From contig CANQVF010000001.1 of the NCBI GenBank assembly GCA_947627185.1, forward strand, positions 35,404-99,403: a stretch of DNA of 64,000 nt, written 5' to 3'. Origin of the DNA: an uncultured Clostridia bacterium (lineage in GTDB: Bacteria > Bacillota > Clostridia > TANB77 > CAG-508). The notes under the pieces are model-generated. The model searched no databases and was not told where the DNA came from. It was given only the letters and a program-made list of their open reading frames with translations. Position numbers and translations under genes: made by a program. Below, piece after piece: positions 7,551 to 15,230 of this stretch (positions within the stretch are counted from its first letter, which is position 1; each line of letters begins with the position of its first letter).

Positions 7551-7597
7551 AAAATATATTGAAAAGTGAATTTAAAATTTTAAGAAAGGAATTAAAA

Positions 7598-8623
7598 ATG
7601 AAGGTCTCTGACTTTAATTATGATTTACCAGAGAGATTAATTGCTCAACATCCTTATGATAAAAGAGATGAAGCAAGATTAATGGTATTAGATAAAACAA
7701 AGCAAAAAATTGAACATAAAGTTTTTAAAGATATAATAGAATATTTAAATCCAGGAGATTGCTTAGTAATAAATAATACAAAAGTTATACCTGCAAGATT
7801 ATATGGAAAAAAAGATACTGGTGCTAAAGTTGAATTTTTATTATTAAAAAGAATAGATGGAGATTTTTGGGAAGTTATGGTAAGACCTGGAAATAAATTA
7901 AAACCAGGTACAGTAATTTATTTTGGAGATAATATTCTAAAAGCAACAGTTTTAGAAGTATTAGATGGCGGGAATAGAAAGGTTAAATTTGAATATAATG
8001 GTATTTTTAATGAAATATTAGATAAAGTCGGACTTATGCCGCTTCCACCATATATTACAGAAGCTACAAAAGAAGATACGAAAAAATATCAAACTGTTTA
8101 TGCAAAATATGATGGTTCTGCTGCTGCACCAACTGCTGGACTACATTTTACAAAAGAATTATTAAAAAAAATAGAAGAAAAAGGGGTTCAAATAGCGAAT
8201 GTAACTCTTCATGTAGGAATAGGAACTTTTAGACCAGTAAAAGTTGAGAATGTTGAAGAACATGAAATGCATTCTGAACATTATTATATAAAAAAAGAAG
8301 ATGCAGATAAAATTAATAAAACTAAGTTAGCAGGTAAAAAAGTTGTAGCAGTTGGAACAACTTCTTGTAGAGTTTTAGAATCTGTTGCAGATAAAGATGG
8401 ACTAGTTGAAGAAATAGAGGCTGATACAAATATTTTTATTTATCCAGGATATAAATTTAAATGCATAGATAGTTTAATAACAAATTTTCATTTACCAGAA
8501 TCTACTTTAATAATGTTGGTTTCAAGTTTAGCAGGAAAAGATTTTATTATGAAAGCATATAAAGAAGCTGTTGATAATGAATATAAATTTTTTAGTTTTG
8601 GAGATGCAATGCTTATAAAATAA
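7598..8623 (+). CDS. queA: S-adenosylmethionine:tRNA ribosyltransferase-isomerase
   Basis: [19 protein letters not shown], the canonical QueA N-terminus. ATG at 7598 preferred over the upstream TTG at 7559. Confidence 0.92.
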
Positions 8624-9770
<1,147 letters not shown>

Positions 9771-9787: not shown

Positions 9788-11458
9788 ATGAACTTAGAAG
9801 AGAGCGATTTATATAAAGAAAGTCTAGAAAAAAATACTAGAAACAGAAAAAAGGTTATGTATTCAATTATTTTATGTGCAATATTAATTGTTATATTTTT
9901 TGCAATAATTTGTTTTTTAAAATATCAAGATTCAAGAACAGAAAAACTATTTTTTAATGATAAGCAAGTATCAAAAATACCAAGTGATTTTTATCAAGTT
10001 GTTGATAATAATTCTATCTATGTTAATATAAAAGAATTAGCAGAATTATTAAATTATAAATATACAAAAGGTCAATATAACAAATATAATGAAGATGAAC
10101 AAAGCTGTTGTTTACAAAATGATTTTGAAATAGTTTCTATTACTGCAAAAGAAAGTAAATATGAAAAAATTCTAGATGTAAATAATGCAAAACCAACTTT
10201 AGCTGGAATACAAGTTACTATGAAAAATGATAAAGGTTATACAGAAGTTTTTGATTTAGTAAAACCAATAAAATATATAGATAGTAAAATATATGTTTCA
10301 ATTGAAGATGCTTCTGAAATGCTAAATGTAAAAATTGATTGGTCAGAATATAGATTTAGATTTTATACATTAGATTATTTAATTGCCAATGCTCAAAAAG
10401 CTATTACACAGTTGAAGTACACTGAAATGAGTGGTTACTATGAAAATTTAAAATCAATATTATATGATTATGTAATAGTTAGTAATGGTAATGCAGATGC
10501 AAAAGAGAAACTATATGGAGTTGTTTCTTTAAAAGATAAAAAAGAAATTATAAGTGTAAAATATAATGACATTAAATTTGTTCAAAATGTAAAAGAATTT
10601 TATGTAACAGCATCAAATGGAACAATGGGAATTTTAGATTCAGGAGGCTCTACAATTATAGCTCCTTCTGAATATGAAAATATATCTTTATTAGATGCTG
10701 AAAATCAATTATATCTTGTTGAGAAAAATGATGAATATGGAGTAGTAAACAGAAGAGGAGATATAGTTGTTTATCCAGAATATGATGAAATAGGTATAGA
10801 TATTTCCCAACTTGAATCTGAATCTGTATTAGAATTAGTAGAAAATCCATCAGTATTATTAGGAAAAGTTATTCCTGTAAAAAAAGATGGACAATATGGA
10901 TTATATAATATAAATGGAGAAATGATATTAGAAACAAAATATGATACAATAGGTTGCAAAACAACATCAAAAGTAACAACTTCTGGTCATGAAGAAAGTG
11001 TAGTTGTAATTCCACCTTCTGTTGGAATAAAAGGTGTTGTAATTAGTCAAGGTGATTCTTATGGAATTTTTGATGTAACAACACAAAAAATAATTTTACC
11101 TCTTGTTTGTTCAAAAATATATGCTATTACTAAGTCAGGAAAAACAACTTATTATATGGAATATAATGAACAACAAAAAGATTTATCTGAACACTTAAAA
11201 GAAAATAATCTTGTAAATGTTGATGAAAATGGAAATGAGATTGATTTATCAGAAGAAATAGAAGAAGACCAAGAAAGTCAAGAAACAGATAATAAAAATG
11301 TAGTAAATAATACAACTTCAAATACTAATACTGCAAATAATCAAAATACTAACATTTCTACAAATACTACTAATAATACAAACACTAATAATACTAATGC
11401 TAATAATACAAATACACAAAAAAGTAATACTAATACATCATCAAATAGTGTAAATTAG
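9788..11458 (+). CDS. membrane-anchored WG-repeat (KWG-type) surface protein with Asn/Thr-rich C-terminal tail
   Basis: One N-terminal TM. Repeated units of the type VKKDGQYGLYNINGEMILETKYDTIG and EYGVVNRRGDIVVYPEYDEIG. The C-terminal 90 aa are N/T low complexity. Confidence 0.6.
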   Translation: MNLEESDLYKESLEKNTRNRKKVMYSIILCAILIVIFFAIICFLKYQDSRTEKLFFNDKQVSKIPSDFYQVVDNNSIYVNIKELAELLNYKYTKGQYNKYNEDEQSCCLQNDFEIVSITAKESKYEKILDVNNAKPTLAGIQVTMKNDKGYTEVFDLVKPIKYIDSKIYVSIEDASEMLNVKIDWSEYRFRFYTLDYLIANAQKAITQLKYTEMSGYYENLKSILYDYVIVSNGNADAKEKLYGVVSLKDKKEIISVKYNDIKFVQNVKEFYVTASNGTMGILDSGGSTIIAPSEYENISLLDAENQLYLVEKNDEYGVVNRRGDIVVYPEYDEIGIDISQLESESVLELVENPSVLLGKVIPVKKDGQYGLYNINGEMILETKYDTIGCKTTSKVTTSGHEESVVVIPPSVGIKGVVISQGDSYGIFDVTTQKIILPLVCSKIYAITKSGKTTYYMEYNEQQKDLSEHLKENNLVNVDENGNEIDLSEEIEEDQESQETDNKNVVNNTTSNTNTANNQNTNISTNTTNNTNTNNTNANNTNTQKSNTNTSSNSVN

Positions 11459-11499
11459 TATTCGTATAATTCCAAATATTTTATAAAATAGTTATAAAA

Positions 11500-11538
11500 A
11501 ATGCTTCTATAAATATAATTTTATAGAAGCATTTTGCT
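11500..11538 (+). terminator. rho-independent terminator
   Basis: Inverted repeat aaaatgcttctataaa / tttatagaagcatttt with a T-run. Confidence 0.6.
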
Positions 11539-11569: not shown

Positions 11570-11923
11570 ATGAAATATTTTTTAAGGGAAGTGGCATTAT
11601 CAATTTTAATTTCTTTAATTTTAATTTTTATTTTATCAATAGTTTTAAGTGAAACTTCTGTTAGTGAAAGCGTAATTATACCAGTAACAATAGGAATTGC
11701 AAGTTTCTCGCTTATGGTAGGAGGATTTAGAATCTCTAGAATAAAAAAAGAAAAAGGAATTCTTTATGGTAGTTTATTAGGATTTATTTATATGATTATT
11801 TTATATTTAATTTCTAGTTTAATGAATTTTGAATTTAATTTAAATATTAATTCAATAATAATGATTGTACTTGGAATATTAGGTGGAGCAATTGGTGGAA
11901 TAATTGGAGTAAATTTTAAATAA
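11570..11923 (+). CDS. small integral membrane protein (3 predicted TM, glycine-zipper GILGGAIGGIIG)
   Basis: RBS aaggagga precedes the start. Hydrophobic throughout. No assignable family. Confidence 0.5.
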   Translation: MKYFLREVALSILISLILIFILSIVLSETSVSESVIIPVTIGIASFSLMVGGFRISRIKKEKGILYGSLLGFIYMIILYLISSLMNFEFNLNINSIIMIVLGILGGAIGGIIGVNFK

Positions 11924-11942: not shown

Positions 11943-11971
11943 TTGATATTTTTTTTTATTTAATATACAAT
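11943..11971 (+). promoter_or_regulatory. sigma-A-type promoter (TTGATA-17-TACAAT) upstream of the HDIG gene
   Basis: Hexamers and spacing read directly from the sequence. Confidence 0.4.
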
Positions 11972-12026: not shown

Positions 12027-12686
12027 ATGGTAACTTTTGATGATGTTACAAACAATATCGAAGTTAAAGAATTAATAAAAAATGCTCAAAAACAACTTGA
12101 TGTTTTAGGATATACAGAACATTCTAATAGACATGTATCTGTTGTTGCAGAAAGAGCAGGAAATATTCTTAAAGCTTTAGGATATGATGAACATCGTATA
12201 GAACTGGCAAGAATTGCTGGATATATGCACGATATTGGTAATTCTGTAAATAGAGTCGATCATGCACATACTGGAGCAATATTAGCTTATAATATTTTAA
12301 AAGATATGAATATGAATGCTTCTGATAGAACAGAAATTATGATGGCTATAGGAAATCATGATGAATCTACTGGTACTGCAGTTAGCGATATATCTGCTGC
12401 TCTTATATTAGCTGATAAATCAGATGCACATAGAAGTAGAGTTTCCAAAAAAGATAGGAGTTTGTTTGATAAGCATGATGAGGTAAACTTTGCTGTTACA
12501 AATTCTGATCTTAAAATAGATATTGAAGAAAGAAAAGCAATTTTAAATTTAACAATAGATACTAAAATTTGTCCAGTTATTGATTATTTTGAAATATTTA
12601 TGGATAGAACAAAAATGAGTAAAAGGGCTGCAAAATATTTAGGATTATGGTTTGAATTAATTATAAATGATACAAACTTATTATAG
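12027..12686 (+). CDS. HD/HDIG-domain metal-dependent phosphohydrolase
   Basis: H..(NRHVSVV) ... AGYMHDIGN ... GNHDE motifs. RBS aaaggagga upstream. Confidence 0.65.
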   Translation: MVTFDDVTNNIEVKELIKNAQKQLDVLGYTEHSNRHVSVVAERAGNILKALGYDEHRIELARIAGYMHDIGNSVNRVDHAHTGAILAYNILKDMNMNASDRTEIMMAIGNHDESTGTAVSDISAALILADKSDAHRSRVSKKDRSLFDKHDEVNFAVTNSDLKIDIEERKAILNLTIDTKICPVIDYFEIFMDRTKMSKRAAKYLGLWFELIINDTNLL

Positions 12687-12698
12687 GAGGTAGTAGTT

Positions 12699-14129
12699 TT
12701 GGAAAAGAATTTAAAAAGAATTAGAACAATAGCAATATTATTATTAGCATTATTAATTATTGTTGGATCATTTTTAGGAGTATATGTTAAAAAATATGGT
12801 ATATGGAAAAACATATTACCAGATTTTAACTTAGGAATGGAATTAAAAGGTATAAGAGAATTACATTTTGTTTTAGATGATTCTGAAAATGAAAAAGAAA
12901 TATATGTTGATGCAAATGGAAATTATGCAGGAGATGTTAAATCTGATACATCTTCTAATACACAAATATCTTTAGAAACAGATGATGGTGAAAATGTTGA
13001 AAATGCAGATTCACAGCAAGAAGATAAAACAAATATTGAAGGATATACTAAAGAAACAAGAACAATAAAAGCAAATGAAGAAGCTAATATAACAAAAGAA
13101 AATTTTGAATTAGCTAAGAAAATAATACAATCAAGATTAGAAAAAATGGATGTATATGAATATAATATTAGATTAGATACTCTTACAGGGGAAATAATTA
13201 TAGAATTACCAGATGATGAAAATTTATCAATTGAACAAGCCTTGATTTCTACTGTTGGAAAAGTTGAAATTGTTGATTATCAAAATGGATTATTATTATT
13301 AGATGACTCACATTTAAAAAAGGCAACTATGCTTGCTTCAAATCAAAATAATCAGTATCAAGCATATCTACAATTAACTTTTGATAAAACTGGTGCAGAA
13401 AAATTAAAAGAAATTAGTAATAAATATCAAAAAACAACAGATGAAAGTGGAAATGAAAATATTAACTATATTTCAATAAAAATGGATGACCAAGTTCTTA
13501 GCACAACATATTTTGGAGAAGAATTATCAACTGGTATTATACAAATTCCTGTTGGTAATGCAACAGAAGATTATAACCAATATGTTGAAATAGCACAAAG
13601 TGTACAAATGATTGAAAATATTGTAAATGATGATTCATTACCATTATCATATACATTAAGTTCAGATAATCGTATTAATTCAGTTTTAACAAATGATGTT
13701 AAATTAATTGCAGAAATAGTATTTTTTGCTATCATATTAATAGTGTCATTGTTTTTGATAGTAAAATACAAATTAGAAGGATTCAAATTAGCAATATTAT
13801 CTTTAGGATATATTGGAATATTAAATCTTGTAATTAGATATACAAATGTTGTTATAACAGTAAATGGATTAATAGCACTTATTGGAGTAATTATTATAAA
13901 TTATATTTTTGTTATAAATTATTTAAGAAAATTAGGTACTAGTGAAATGAAAAGAACAGCTTTTCTAGAAACTATGAAAAAAATGTATTTAGCTATTATA
14001 CCAGTTTGTATAATTTCTATTATATTTACTTTTATGTCTAGTGTAGTTATAAGTAGTATAGGAATGATTTTATTCTGGGGATTATTTATACAAGCTATAT
14101 ACAATAATTTGTTTATAACAAATATTTAA
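12699..14129 (+). CDS. SecD-like RND-topology membrane protein (divergent)
   Basis: TTG start 8 nt after aggagg. TM1, then about 310 aa extracytoplasmic domain beginning LGMELKGIRELHFVLD (resembles the Sec_GG motif), then 5 C-terminal TMs. It lacks the canonical GMAVDANV SecD motif. Confidence 0.35.
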   Translation: MEKNLKRIRTIAILLLALLIIVGSFLGVYVKKYGIWKNILPDFNLGMELKGIRELHFVLDDSENEKEIYVDANGNYAGDVKSDTSSNTQISLETDDGENVENADSQQEDKTNIEGYTKETRTIKANEEANITKENFELAKKIIQSRLEKMDVYEYNIRLDTLTGEIIIELPDDENLSIEQALISTVGKVEIVDYQNGLLLLDDSHLKKATMLASNQNNQYQAYLQLTFDKTGAEKLKEISNKYQKTTDESGNENINYISIKMDDQVLSTTYFGEELSTGIIQIPVGNATEDYNQYVEIAQSVQMIENIVNDDSLPLSYTLSSDNRINSVLTNDVKLIAEIVFFAIILIVSLFLIVKYKLEGFKLAILSLGYIGILNLVIRYTNVVITVNGLIALIGVIIINYIFVINYLRKLGTSEMKRTAFLETMKKMYLAIIPVCIISIIFTFMSSVVISSIGMILFWGLFIQAIYNNLFITNI

Positions 14130-14157
14130 AATAATAGTTTATAGAAGGAGAAAAAAT

Positions 14158-14799
14158 ATGAAATTGAGTGGAAGTAAAAAAATAATATTATTAGGCTTAG
14201 TTCTTTTGATTATTGCTGGAATTGTAATAGTAGCTTTAAAAGGATTTAATGTATATATAATGTTAGAACAACATGAATCAATAAATATGGTAATAGGAAA
14301 AGAAATTAACTTAAATGACATTAAAAATATTTGCAAAGAAGTATTTGGAAATAAAACAGTAGTTGTAAGATCAGTTGAATTTTTTAATGATTCTTTTAAT
14401 ATTAATGTACAATCTATTACTGATGAAGAAAAGGCTAACCTTGTAAATAAAATAAATGAAAAATATACAACAGATTTTAAAGCAGAAGATATATCAGTAG
14501 TTAAAGTATCAAATGTAAGAATTAGAGATTTAGTAAGACCTTATATAAAACCTGTAATTGCATCAGTTATCGTAATTATAGCATATTTAATTATAAGATT
14601 TAGAAAAATGAATACATTTAAATTACTAGGCAAATTATTTGCTATAATTGCATTAACAGAATTATCTTTAGCTAGTATAATAGCAATAGCAAGAGTTCCA
14701 GTCTCACCAGTTATTGTAAATTTAATGACAGTTATTGCAGTAGTAGAATTAGTTTTATATATTAATAAACAAGAAAAGGAATATGAAAATCAAGATTAA
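14158..14799 (+). CDS. SecF-like small membrane protein (divergent; 1+3 TM with about 100-aa loop)
   Basis: RBS gaaggagaaaaaat ATG. Topology TM, loop, 3 TM. Immediately follows the SecD-like gene in an operon-like arrangement. No strong motif match. Confidence 0.3.
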   Translation: MKLSGSKKIILLGLVLLIIAGIVIVALKGFNVYIMLEQHESINMVIGKEINLNDIKNICKEVFGNKTVVVRSVEFFNDSFNINVQSITDEEKANLVNKINEKYTTDFKAEDISVVKVSNVRIRDLVRPYIKPVIASVIVIIAYLIIRFRKMNTFKLLGKLFAIIALTELSLASIIAIARVPVSPVIVNLMTVIAVVELVLYINKQEKEYENQD

Positions 14800-14934
14800 T
14801 ATAATAAAAACACTTGATTTTTATAATAAAATATAGTAAAATAGTTTTGCTAAATTACCATAGACTTAGTTTAAAGAAAAAACCTACTTTATACTCAGTT
14901 TGTGGCAAATAAAATAAATAGGAGGTTAATGATT

Positions 14935-15198
14935 ATGACTAAAGAAAGAAAACAAGAAATTATTAATACTTATAAAAGAGAAGAGAACGATACAGGTTCT
15001 CCAGAAGTACAAATTGCACTTTTATCAGAAAGAATTTCAGAATTAACAGAACATTTAAAGGTTCATAAAAAAGATAATCACTCTAGAAGAGGATTATTAA
15101 AAATGATTGGTAAAAGAAGAAATTTGTTAAATTATTTAGCAAAGAAAGATATCAACAGATATAGAGAAATTGTTAAAAAATTAAATTTAAGAAAATAA
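14935..15198 (+). CDS. rpsO: 30S ribosomal protein S15
   Basis: RBS taggaggt, then ATG at 14935. [62 protein letters not shown], the canonical S15. Confidence 0.95.
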
Positions 15199-15202
15199 TA
15201 AA

Positions 15203-15230
15203 AAGCTCGGATTTGTTCCGAGTTTTTTTT
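15203..15230 (+). terminator. rho-independent terminator after rpsO
   Basis: Hairpin ctcgga-tttgt-tccgag followed by T8. Confidence 0.8.

Follow-up and report, generated by a model that had tools for sequence, protein, structure and literature searches.

A remote SecD/SecF pair in the secDF position of uncultured gut Clostridia

In Escherichia coli, taken here as the reference for gene order, queA and tgt are followed by yajC, secD and secF. In the genome of an uncultured Clostridia bacterium (TANB77; CAG-508) two adjacent membrane protein genes are found downstream of queA-tgt, in the position that secD and secF have in E. coli, and neither of their products reaches a curated Pfam or NCBIfam cut-off. 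Are these proteins the SecD and SecF of their host, the remains of them, or an exporter of another kind? The question comes from an earlier sequence-only reading, and it is addressed here for a window, meaning the whole analysed stretch of 64,000 nucleotides (contig CANQVF010000001.1, forward strand), together with homologous loci from other genomes. All positions are those of the window.

Gene order around the pair

The features of the locus are the following:

7559-8623, + strand: queA (Pfam Queuosine_synth, identical contig), conserved upstream neighbour
8655-9770, + strand: tgt (Pfam TGT, identical contig), conserved upstream neighbour
9788-11458, + strand: membrane-anchored WG-repeat protein, 556 aa (Pfam WG_beta_rep, E 1.1e-11)
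11570-11923, + strand: DUF3792/TIGR04086 small membrane protein, 117 aa (TIGR04086, 80.1 bits, cut-off 30; PF12670, 76.5 bits)
11943-11971, + strand: promoter-like site TTGATA-17-TACAAT 5' of the HD gene (weak evidence)
12027-12686, + strand: HD-domain phosphohydrolase, 219 aa (PF01966, 26.2 bits, cut-off 22)
12699-14129, + strand: SecD-like subunit, 476 aa, with TM1, P1 ectodomain and TM2-TM6 (TTG start, GGAGG ribosome-binding site)
12789-13691, + strand: P1-like periplasmic domain, about aa 31-331 (LGMELKG at aa 45-51; P1-head match at aa 200-284)
12945-13025, + strand: acidic low-complexity insert in P1, aa 83-109 (pLDDT below 50; gap-rich, variable alignment columns)
13854-13919, + strand: TM4 of the SecD-like subunit, about aa 386-407 (Ile399 at the essential-Asp column; Asn401 corresponding to the conserved Asn521)
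14158-14799, + strand: SecF-like subunit, 213 aa, with TM1, P4-like ferredoxin-type ectodomain and TM2-TM4 only (TIGR00966, AF2, Foldseek)
14545-14763, + strand: TM2-TM4 of the SecF-like subunit, about aa 130-202 (conserved Glu168, Arg179 in a loop, Asn188 and Glu197)
14902-15228, + strand: rpsO (Ribosomal_S15) with a hairpin at 15200-15228, the first terminator-like site downstream of the pair

The three open reading frames (ORFs) for the HD, SecD-like and SecF-like proteins were confirmed, and the upstream context proposed from the sequence also holds, with queA, tgt, the WG-repeat gene and the small membrane protein gene starting at 7559, 8655, 9788 and 11570, respectively. The recJ-relA-hisS genes lie directly upstream. 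Two details had to be corrected. The small protein, described as having three transmembrane (TM) segments, shows four hydrophobic segments in hydropathy analysis. The genes had also been called translationally coupled, but 12 nt separate the HD gene from the SecD-like gene and 28 nt the SecD-like from the SecF-like gene, and each of these closely spaced genes has its own Shine-Dalgarno sequence. Since there are no overlaps, translational coupling is unsupported.

A terminator-like hairpin (11498-11535) is located 3' of the WG-repeat gene, and the one after rpsO is the likely downstream boundary of the transcription unit(s). No terminator-like site was found between the DUF3792 and HD genes, and the DUF3792 gene may be transcribed together with the genes downstream of it. 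Promoter-like matches in this AT-rich region are not above the shuffled expectation, and the operon boundaries are therefore drawn only from the terminator-like hairpins. The WG-repeat gene, kept at the same position in loci L007 to L039, occupies the slot of E. coli yajC; its product is not YajC and is regarded as context only. A phmmer search with E. coli YajC, of low sensitivity for a protein this small, matched no ORF of the window or of the 36 loci described below, and no YajC Pfam match was found in the window flanks.

The pair represents a distinct family, which comprises 318 clusters at 50% identity (E<=1e-30) and, at 90% identity, 283 and 351 clusters for the two proteins. The 36 genome loci recovered all come from metagenome-assembled genomes of uncultured gut Clostridia. 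Four of these are labelled Candidatus Scatovivens (TANB77/CAG-508), and the host clade is at least partly TANB77/CAG-508. The usual gene order is queA-tgt-WG-DUF3792-HD-secD'-secF'-rpsO-pnp. The succession from queA-tgt to secD'-secF' is seen in 33 loci, and the DUF3792 gene is immediately upstream in 33 loci as well. Order and length of the HD, SecD-like and SecF-like trio are kept in dozens of independent assemblies, which is far beyond chance. In the distant loci L040 to L042 the pair is found away from tgt, in other contexts. At L042 the continuation had been guessed from ORF sizes to be apt-relA-dtd-hisS; the genes are mutL, miaA and an HlyD-family gene instead. A fused version of the two proteins also exists (P0459, 689 aa).

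Homology to SecD and SecF

The SecD-like and SecF-like proteins are true, albeit remote, homologues of SecD and SecF. The sequence-only reading had made this depend on profile matches, and these proved significant: the SecD-like protein matches TIGR01129 (SecD) with 36.4 bits (E 3.3e-9) and the SecF-like protein TIGR00966 (SecF) with 50.7 bits (E 1.8e-13) over model positions 3-188 of 279, both scores being far below the curated cut-offs of 244.4 and 160 bits. Within the family, 38 of the 41 SecD-like members are matched by TIGR01129 (all sub-cut-off, best E 2.1e-16) and all 35 aligned SecF-like members by TIGR00966 (best E 6.9e-16), and distant family representatives match SecD/SecDF models only. 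The SecD_SecF TM domain model PF02355 matched neither window protein at E<=1, nor any of the 41 SecD-like members at E<=0.01. Searches of PDB sequences with the single proteins and the family profile returned chance-level matches only and no SecDF. The HH-suite alignments to the single E. coli SecD and SecF sequences are weak (E 0.2 and 8e-4, respectively) and were used only as a check on register.

The fold matches agree with the profiles. As proposed, hydropathy and the AF2 model give the SecD-like protein one TM helix, an ectodomain of about 300 aa and five more TM helices (helix 2-26, mixed alpha/beta domain 29-326, helices 332-473), and the ectodomain has the fold of both P1 head and base. 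The acidic insert in P1 is predicted to be disordered and varies in length among homologues. Only 1+3 TM helices had been assigned to the SecF-like protein, and the same two methods bear this out (H5-28, H122-147, H153-178 and H184-212; pLDDT 77.7). Its ectodomain of about 100 aa contains a P4 domain with beta-alpha-beta-beta-alpha-beta order at residues 39-117 of the AF2 model, and TM1, P4 and TM2 can be aligned to E. coli SecF with HH-suite as well as with HMMER. The top Foldseek matches of the model are the SecDF structures 5XAP, 5XAM and 5XAN together with E. coli SecF (5mg3_F). The short form is constant in the family, all 158 SecF-like sequences being 200-258 aa long with 1+3 TM helices, also in the individually checked distant loci L039 to L042. 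Database names and literature yielded no previous account of a short SecF.

At the motif level, the LGxxLxG motif noticed at the start of the ectodomain is real (L45-G-M-E-L-K-G51). Its G46 never varies among the 41 aligned family sequences, and conservation is 90% or higher at L49 and G51. The motif resembles LGLDLRGG of E. coli SecD; it is without the second Gly of Sec_GG, and PF07549 has no match at E<=1 in the window pair. A P1-base signature (R146-L147 ... G164 ... E169-L-P171) resembles canonical SecD in a comparison made by eye and not by a computed alignment. The claim that no canonical motifs are retained was thus too strong. In the SecF-like protein the conserved Q38-H39-E40 is near the SecF GG motif, as judged from the HMMER alignment to E. 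coli SecF with GG placed by eye. The pair had also been considered far shorter than normal, which is true of the SecF-like protein only; the SecD-like protein with its 476 aa exceeds the 397 positions of TIGR01129.

With canonical SecD/SecF/SecDF (Thermus 3AQP, Deinococcus 5XAP and E. coli) the family shares adjacent D and F genes after queA-tgt; TM1, P1 head and base and TM2-6 in D; TM1 and a ferredoxin-like P4 in F; LGxxLxG at the P1 start; the "ELP" P1-base signature (by eye); an Asn in TM4 two residues past the Asp position; and fused derivatives. It differs in having 10 TM helices instead of 12, the F subunit ending after its fourth helix, in profile scores 4-7 times under the curated cut-offs, in a TM domain to which PF02355 is blind and in that no yajC was found nearby. 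The models of archaeal-type SecD (NF006218/PRK08343; E 2.7e-8 with the SecD-like protein of the window) and mycoplasma SecDF (NF046001, SecDF_plasm) are among the top-scoring ones for many family members, at 33-59 bits against a cut-off of 383 and 28-46 bits against 500, respectively. That models of divergent SecDF proteins are among the top matches marks the family as another highly diverged SecDF branch; there is no indication that it derives specifically from archaeal or mycoplasma genes.

The proton-relay residues

Three residues are known to be essential in SecDF, namely an Asp in TM4 (Thermus D340, E. coli D519), an Asp in TM10 and an Arg in TM11 (PMC5974789). The equivalents used here are Thermus D637 and E. 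coli SecF D213 for the TM10 Asp, and Thermus R671 and E. coli SecF R247 for the TM11 Arg. The column of the TM4 Asp is occupied by Ile399 in the SecD-like protein, HMMER and HH-suite giving the same register, although each alignment is weak and made to a single E. coli reference. Among the residues listed, position 399 is Ile, Val, Ala, Leu, Gly or Phe, and it is acidic in none of the 304 SecD-like sequences. Two residues past the Asp position, N401, present in 251 of the 304, aligns with Asn521. The SecF-like chain stops about 15 residues after the helix equivalent to TM10, and an Arg-bearing TM11 is therefore nonexistent. The family is thus without the TM4 Asp and the TM11 Arg; of the three relay residues, two or more are gone.

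Compared with canonical SecDF, in which all three positions are charged, the TM4 Asp is replaced by Ile, Val, Ala, Leu or Gly, the TM11 Arg has gone with its helix, the TM10 Asp is not conserved in register, and Glu168 and Glu197 are new in the F subunit. In an HMMER alignment extended by eye, Glu197 lies about two residues off the D213 column. Conservation is high among the 158 SecF-like sequences (R179 in 158, E168 in 150, E197 in 152 and N188 in 150). Situated in helices and about 95% conserved, Glu168 and Glu197 may be candidate replacement carboxylates, though not universal ones. Residue 197 is Lys, Ser or Thr in L039 to L042, and the fused P0459 has neither glutamate. When the subunits were compared for compensatory relocation of acidic residues, L042 had E389 with T197, and P0459 had no acidic residue at any of the sites. 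Precedents for diversified ion coupling or copy number are provided by SecDF1/SecDF2 of Vibrio and the fused and split SecDF of Streptomyces. These paralogues are not known to lack any of the 12 TM helices or of the essential charged residues.

What the pair may be and why it matters

The pair is probably the SecDF of its lineage of uncultured gut Clostridia, in a fast-evolving and lineage-specific form whose proton coupling has been remodelled or lost. The alternative that survives best, though we consider it unlikely, is a specialised SecDF paralogue that serves some substrates or conditions beside a canonical secDF located elsewhere. Several SecDF forms in one genome are on record, e.g., two in Streptomyces and SecDF1/SecDF2 in Vibrio (PMC4139356, PMC11470409). 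The pair is indeed fast-evolving, with median identities across the clade of 52% and 61% compared with about 90% for housekeeping neighbours, and the genome was inspected over approximately 84 kb only. However, the place of the ancestral secDF, 3' of queA-tgt and near recJ-relA-hisS, is taken by this pair, and neither the 84 kb (the window plus 10 kb beyond each end) nor the flanking DNA of the 36 loci yielded a canonical copy or another SecD-, SecF- or YajC-like gene. In addition, TANB77 genomes are described as reduced (PMC11680825), making redundant secDF copies less likely.

It is improbable that the pair is an RND exporter of a non-protein substrate (lipid, glycolipid or cell-wall precursor) which has ancestry alone in common with SecDF, like MmpL and HpnN. 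The known proteins of this kind (HpnN, MmpL3/4/5, AcrB and Dispatched/NPC1) transport small molecules or lipids, and they differ from the pair in having periplasmic domains unrelated to P1 and 12 TM helices in one chain.

Could the HD hydrolase form one functional module with the two membrane proteins, e.g., as a phosphohydrolase that regulates the pair or is regulated by it? The HD assignment is secure by its PF01966 score, and the narrower name "HDIG hydrolase" did not stand, as TIGR00277 gives 21.9 bits against a cut-off of 27.6, even if the sequence reads H68-D69-I70-G71. Five residues do not vary in the family alignment (H68, D69, H111, D112 and D130), and H32 and H36 are conserved to 90% or more; the best match among solved structures is 2PQ7, a "predicted HD superfamily hydrolase" (E 8e-4). 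The SecD-like start codon follows the HD stop codon after a gap of 12 nt, and the adjacency is kept in most loci, including the distant L042. However, no HD match was found at L032, L040 or L041: at L032 the gap between the DUF3792 and SecD-like genes is too short for an HD gene, and at L040 enolase is upstream of the pair in its place. The HD protein, with a median identity of 90% across the clade, also evolves about five times more slowly than the membrane proteins (divergence of about 10% compared with 39-48%), which gives no sign of co-evolution. A joint module is accordingly very improbable. The HD gene is a highly conserved syntenic neighbour and not an obligate partner, and the HD and DUF3792 proteins are probably co-transcribed housekeeping neighbours outside the machine. 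That the pair is a decaying, non-functional secDF remnant, the "relic" of the sequence-only reading, is hardly credible: two helices and essential residues are lost, divergence is high and family scores are sub-cut-off, but intact ORFs of unvarying length are seen in all assemblies examined, hundreds of sequence clusters share many invariant columns, ribosome-binding sites and gene order are conserved, and a fused derivative exists.

The SecD-like subunit keeps TM1, the P1 head and base and TM2-6, and the SecF-like subunit TM1, P4 and TM2-4. Loss of the last two SecF helices (TM11-12 of fused SecDF) leaves 10 membrane helices instead of 12. If the pair is the lineage's own SecDF, the complex would still stand beside SecYEG, its mobile P1 head capturing and holding emerging secretory proteins, and coupling would no longer proceed via the classical Asp(TM4)-Asp(TM10)-Arg(TM11) relay. 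One option is a remodelled polar/acidic cluster, in which Glu168 and Glu197 of the SecF-like subunit would face Asn389 and Asn401 in TM4 of the SecD-like subunit; the other is that energy coupling was lost, and the complex would then be a passive clamp against backsliding. The more specific proposal, that this is the only SecDF of its abundant, uncultured gut Clostridia order, with ten helices and without the Asp-Asp-Arg relay that is regarded as essential in every SecDF studied, working by ion coupling relocated to Glu168/Glu197 or as a clamp independent of the proton motive force (PMF), is put forward only tentatively.

TANB77/CAG-508 is a prevalent uncultured gut group of clinical interest (PMC11680825). 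None of the relatives listed comes with a Pfam domain already computed; where a name is given, which is so for a few, it is "hypothetical protein" or SecD/SecF. Together with the sub-cut-off scores, such poor annotation means that the secretion capacity of the clade is likely mis-scored in metabolic reconstructions. SecDF is described as being among the smallest proton-driven protein motors, and the model of its action rests on three essential charged residues, in TM4, TM10 and TM11 (PMC5974789). A natural family without the TM4 Asp, TM11-12 and an in-register TM10 Asp offers a ready-made test of the parts of this machine, separating what is needed for substrate capture by P1 from what is needed for ion-driven movement.

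Organization and gene neighborhood of the locus

The SecD-like and SecF-like genes follow an HD-domain gene, with gaps of 12 nt (HD/SecD-like) and 28 nt (SecD-like/SecF-like), and each of the three is preceded by a GGAGG-type ribosome-binding site. The G+C content of the window is approximately 25%.

Features of the locus
11498-11535, terminator-like hairpin 3' of the upstream WG-repeat gene
12027-12686, same strand as the pair, HD-domain protein, 219-aa ORF
12699-14129, same strand as HD, SecD-like membrane protein (SecD'), 476-aa ORF, TTG start
14158-14799, same strand as HD, SecF-like membrane protein (SecF'), 213-aa ORF
15200-15228, terminator-like hairpin 3' of rpsO

A four-segment DUF3792/TIGR04086 membrane protein (11570-11923) is encoded just upstream of HD-SecD'-SecF', as in 33 loci. 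It might associate with the pair, for instance by shielding the side of the complex exposed through loss of TM11-12. Since the two hairpins are the only terminator-like ones at the locus, one or two transcription units could span DUF3792, HD, the pair and rpsO. At the locus, promoter-like matches were not more frequent than in shuffled sequence.

Scanning 185,579 species genomes revealed 36 loci, all in uncultured gut Clostridia MAGs (rabbit, chicken, sheep, roe deer, mouse and human samples). In 33 of them the genes run coaE-queA-(variable gene)-tgt-WG-DUF3792-HD-SecD'-SecF'-rpsO-pnp, with rpsO-pnp counted where the locus reaches far enough. On the left flank, recJ-relA-(MBL-fold gene)-hisS lies immediately upstream. 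In Firmicutes, as on the Bacillus subtilis map, secDF is presumably located between tgt-yajC and recJ-apt-relA. If this order holds, the divergent pair lies within the ancestral neighborhood of secDF, which favors orthology over an extra paralogue. No canonical secDF was found in the window, in the 10 kb past either of its ends or in the flanks of the 36 loci; in the window, phmmer with E. coli SecD and SecF matched the SecF-like ORF alone, and weakly. The predicted genes scanned around the pair are all housekeeping genes, and Pfam scans of the window's other large ORFs show housekeeping genes as well.

Distant members are found in other contexts, with enolase upstream in locus L040 and mutL-miaA downstream in L042. 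In L040 (7189-10765) and L041, both from rabbit-gut MAGs, enolase, the distant pair and a ZIP-family transporter follow each other, with neither the HD gene nor the tgt context.

The window begins within relA (73-1893). Directly upstream of relA are recJ and a YlbF-like gene (loci L048/L049, 6084-9989). Still further upstream are genes of glycogen metabolism (GH57 branching enzyme, glycogen synthase), and the recJ-relA interval showed no apt. The queA-tgt interval is a variable insertion point within an otherwise rigid gene order: the extra gene is present in many relatives (L008, L010, L015, L017, L024 and L044-L047) and missing in the window, and its product (250 aa in L044-L047, 403 aa in L004) has no Pfam hit. 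Two membrane-anchored WG-repeat proteins are encoded in the window (9788-11458 and 36918-38561). The first follows tgt, in the position of yajC in E. coli, and is fast-evolving (median identity 50%); its long low-complexity tail is rich in Asn and Thr. ORFs of 1032 and 431 aa, neither with a Pfam match at E<=1e-5, are found where the G+C content of the window is lowest (29912-34559, 19-21%).

The HD protein, previously described as an HDIG hydrolase, has a bona fide HD domain (PF01966, above cut-off) but does not reach the cut-off of the HDIG model. Its closest solved relative is 2PQ7, an uncharacterised structural-genomics protein. With more than 8,000 database relatives and a median identity of 90% in the clade, the level of ribosomal protein S15 and PNPase, it looks like an important enzyme. 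Because the gene is missing from locus L032, and neither L040 nor L041 has it upstream of the pair, we read it as a conserved neighbor of the pair rather than a subunit.

A divergent SecD/SecF family

Hydropathy and AlphaFold2 bear out the topology proposed earlier: one transmembrane segment (TM), an ectodomain of ~300 aa and five TMs for the SecD-like protein (mean pLDDT 79.8), and one TM, ~100 aa and three TMs for the SecF-like protein (mean pLDDT 77.7). The SecD-like P1 domain has acidic low-complexity inserts, predicted to be disordered (12945-13025, aa 83-109), whose length varies widely among relatives (columns ~90-170 and 310-372 of family alignment A1). In some relatives, tens of additional residues are inserted beyond the P1 head.

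Judged by sequence, the pair is not SecD/SecF by curated thresholds but is by homology. Profile matches were significant for TIGR01129 (SecD; E 3.3e-9, 36 bits, cut-off 244) and TIGR00966 (SecF; E 1.8e-13, 51 bits, cut-off 160), although both remain far below cut-off, as does archaeal-type SecD NF006218 (E 2.7e-8, residues 122-457; all NCBIfam). Pfam reported SecDF_P1_head alone, sub-threshold, and its scan did not detect the SecD_SecF TM domain. SecD/SecF models were matched by 38/41 SecD-like and 35/35 SecF-like members (best E ~1e-16), their remaining matches being nearly all to SecDF models, and ten distant representatives matched SecD/SecDF models exclusively. With the SecF-like model, the top Foldseek ranks went to SecDF (5XAP, 5XAM) and to SecF of E. 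coli (E 2.5e-4 to 9e-4). Homology is solid, and in that sense ordinary. PDB sequence searches with single sequences or the family profile gave no matches, which shows how strongly the family has diverged.

Counted as 90% clusters, there are 283 SecD-like relatives (among the 120 listed, lengths run from 325 to 517 aa and nearly all fall within 455-517) and 351 SecF-like ones (207-224 aa among the 120 listed), and no listed relative of either has a precomputed Pfam domain. Among 1.84 billion representatives, the profile search found 318 proteins at E<=1e-30 and just 1,326 at E<=1e-3. As canonical SecD can be assumed to fill far more clusters, we read the profile as delimiting a discrete family rather than drawing in SecD at large. 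One representative, P0459 (689 aa), is a SecD-like protein fused to a short SecF-like form that lacks both conserved glutamates. Median identities to the window proteins are 52% (SecD-like) and 61% (SecF-like), whereas HD reaches 90% and TGT, S15 and PNPase reach 88-93%; with many invariant columns in the alignments, the pair evolves fast, yet under clear constraint. A relic, as had been considered, is not borne out by a family conserved over hundreds of clusters.

Public names are few: JGI names two members SecD or SecF, and one JGI and one NCBI entry are called "hypothetical protein". Four of the 36 loci are labeled Candidatus Scatovivens; in GTDB, Scatovivens faecipullorum is placed in order TANB77, family CAG-508 (PMC13106387), and TANB77 is reported to be uncultured and genome-reduced (PMC11680825).

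Relay residues and helices compared with canonical SecDF

The essential residues of SecDF are an Asp in TM4, an Asp in TM10 and an Arg in TM11 (Thermus D340, D637 and R671; PMC5974789). The SecF-like protein covers positions 3-188 of 279 in TIGR00966 and ends ~15 residues past its fourth helix, the TM10 equivalent. None of the 158 SecF-like sequences examined, 200-258 aa in length, has TM11, TM12 or the TM11 Arg; this extends to the distant members (L039-L042), whose extra length is a loop insert. The membrane domain has 10 helices, whereas that of canonical SecDF includes TM11-12.

We take the E. coli equivalents to be SecD D519, SecF D213 and SecF R247, all confirmed in the K-12 sequences. 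HMMER and HH-suite, each in a weak alignment, place E. coli "VDAN" against "IINY" of the family, so that D519 corresponds to Ile399 and Asn521 to conserved Asn401 (251/304 sequences). Instead of the essential Asp, the 304 SecD-like sequences have hydrophobic-type residues at position 399 (I, V, A, L, G and F listed, none acidic). When the HMMER alignment is extended by eye, the D213 column falls ~2 residues from conserved Glu197, for which distant members have K, S or T.

Conserved residues and possible mechanism

The family has new conserved positions instead. Glu168 (150/158) and Glu197 (152/158) lie within the last two SecF-like helices, and the loop joining these contains invariant Arg179. 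An R/K380-Y-T-N motif precedes SecD-like TM4, and Asn389 is Glu in 60/304 sequences. Compensatory relocation of acidic residues between the subunits gave no clear pattern either way.

The pair forms a SecDF-type complex with intact P1 and P4 domains, and its 10-helix membrane domain is unable to use the classical relay. The complex would still aid Sec-dependent export at the outer face of the membrane. In the published model P1 is the moving, substrate-binding part of SecDF, and its movement might be coupled to ion flow via a relocated Glu/Asn cluster at the TM4/TM10 interface. As the two buried glutamates are ~95% conserved in the core clade, retained ion coupling is slightly favored there. 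Alternatively, given the loss of these glutamates in distant members, the complex may have become a passive clamp. YajC may contact TM2, TM11 and TM12 (PMC5974789); this fits with yajC not being found beside tgt or elsewhere in the DNA inspected, by an insensitive test.

No description of a short SecF or a 10-helix SecDF was found in the literature searched. What makes the family interesting is that a conserved, abundant lineage has lost parts of SecDF presumed to be essential.
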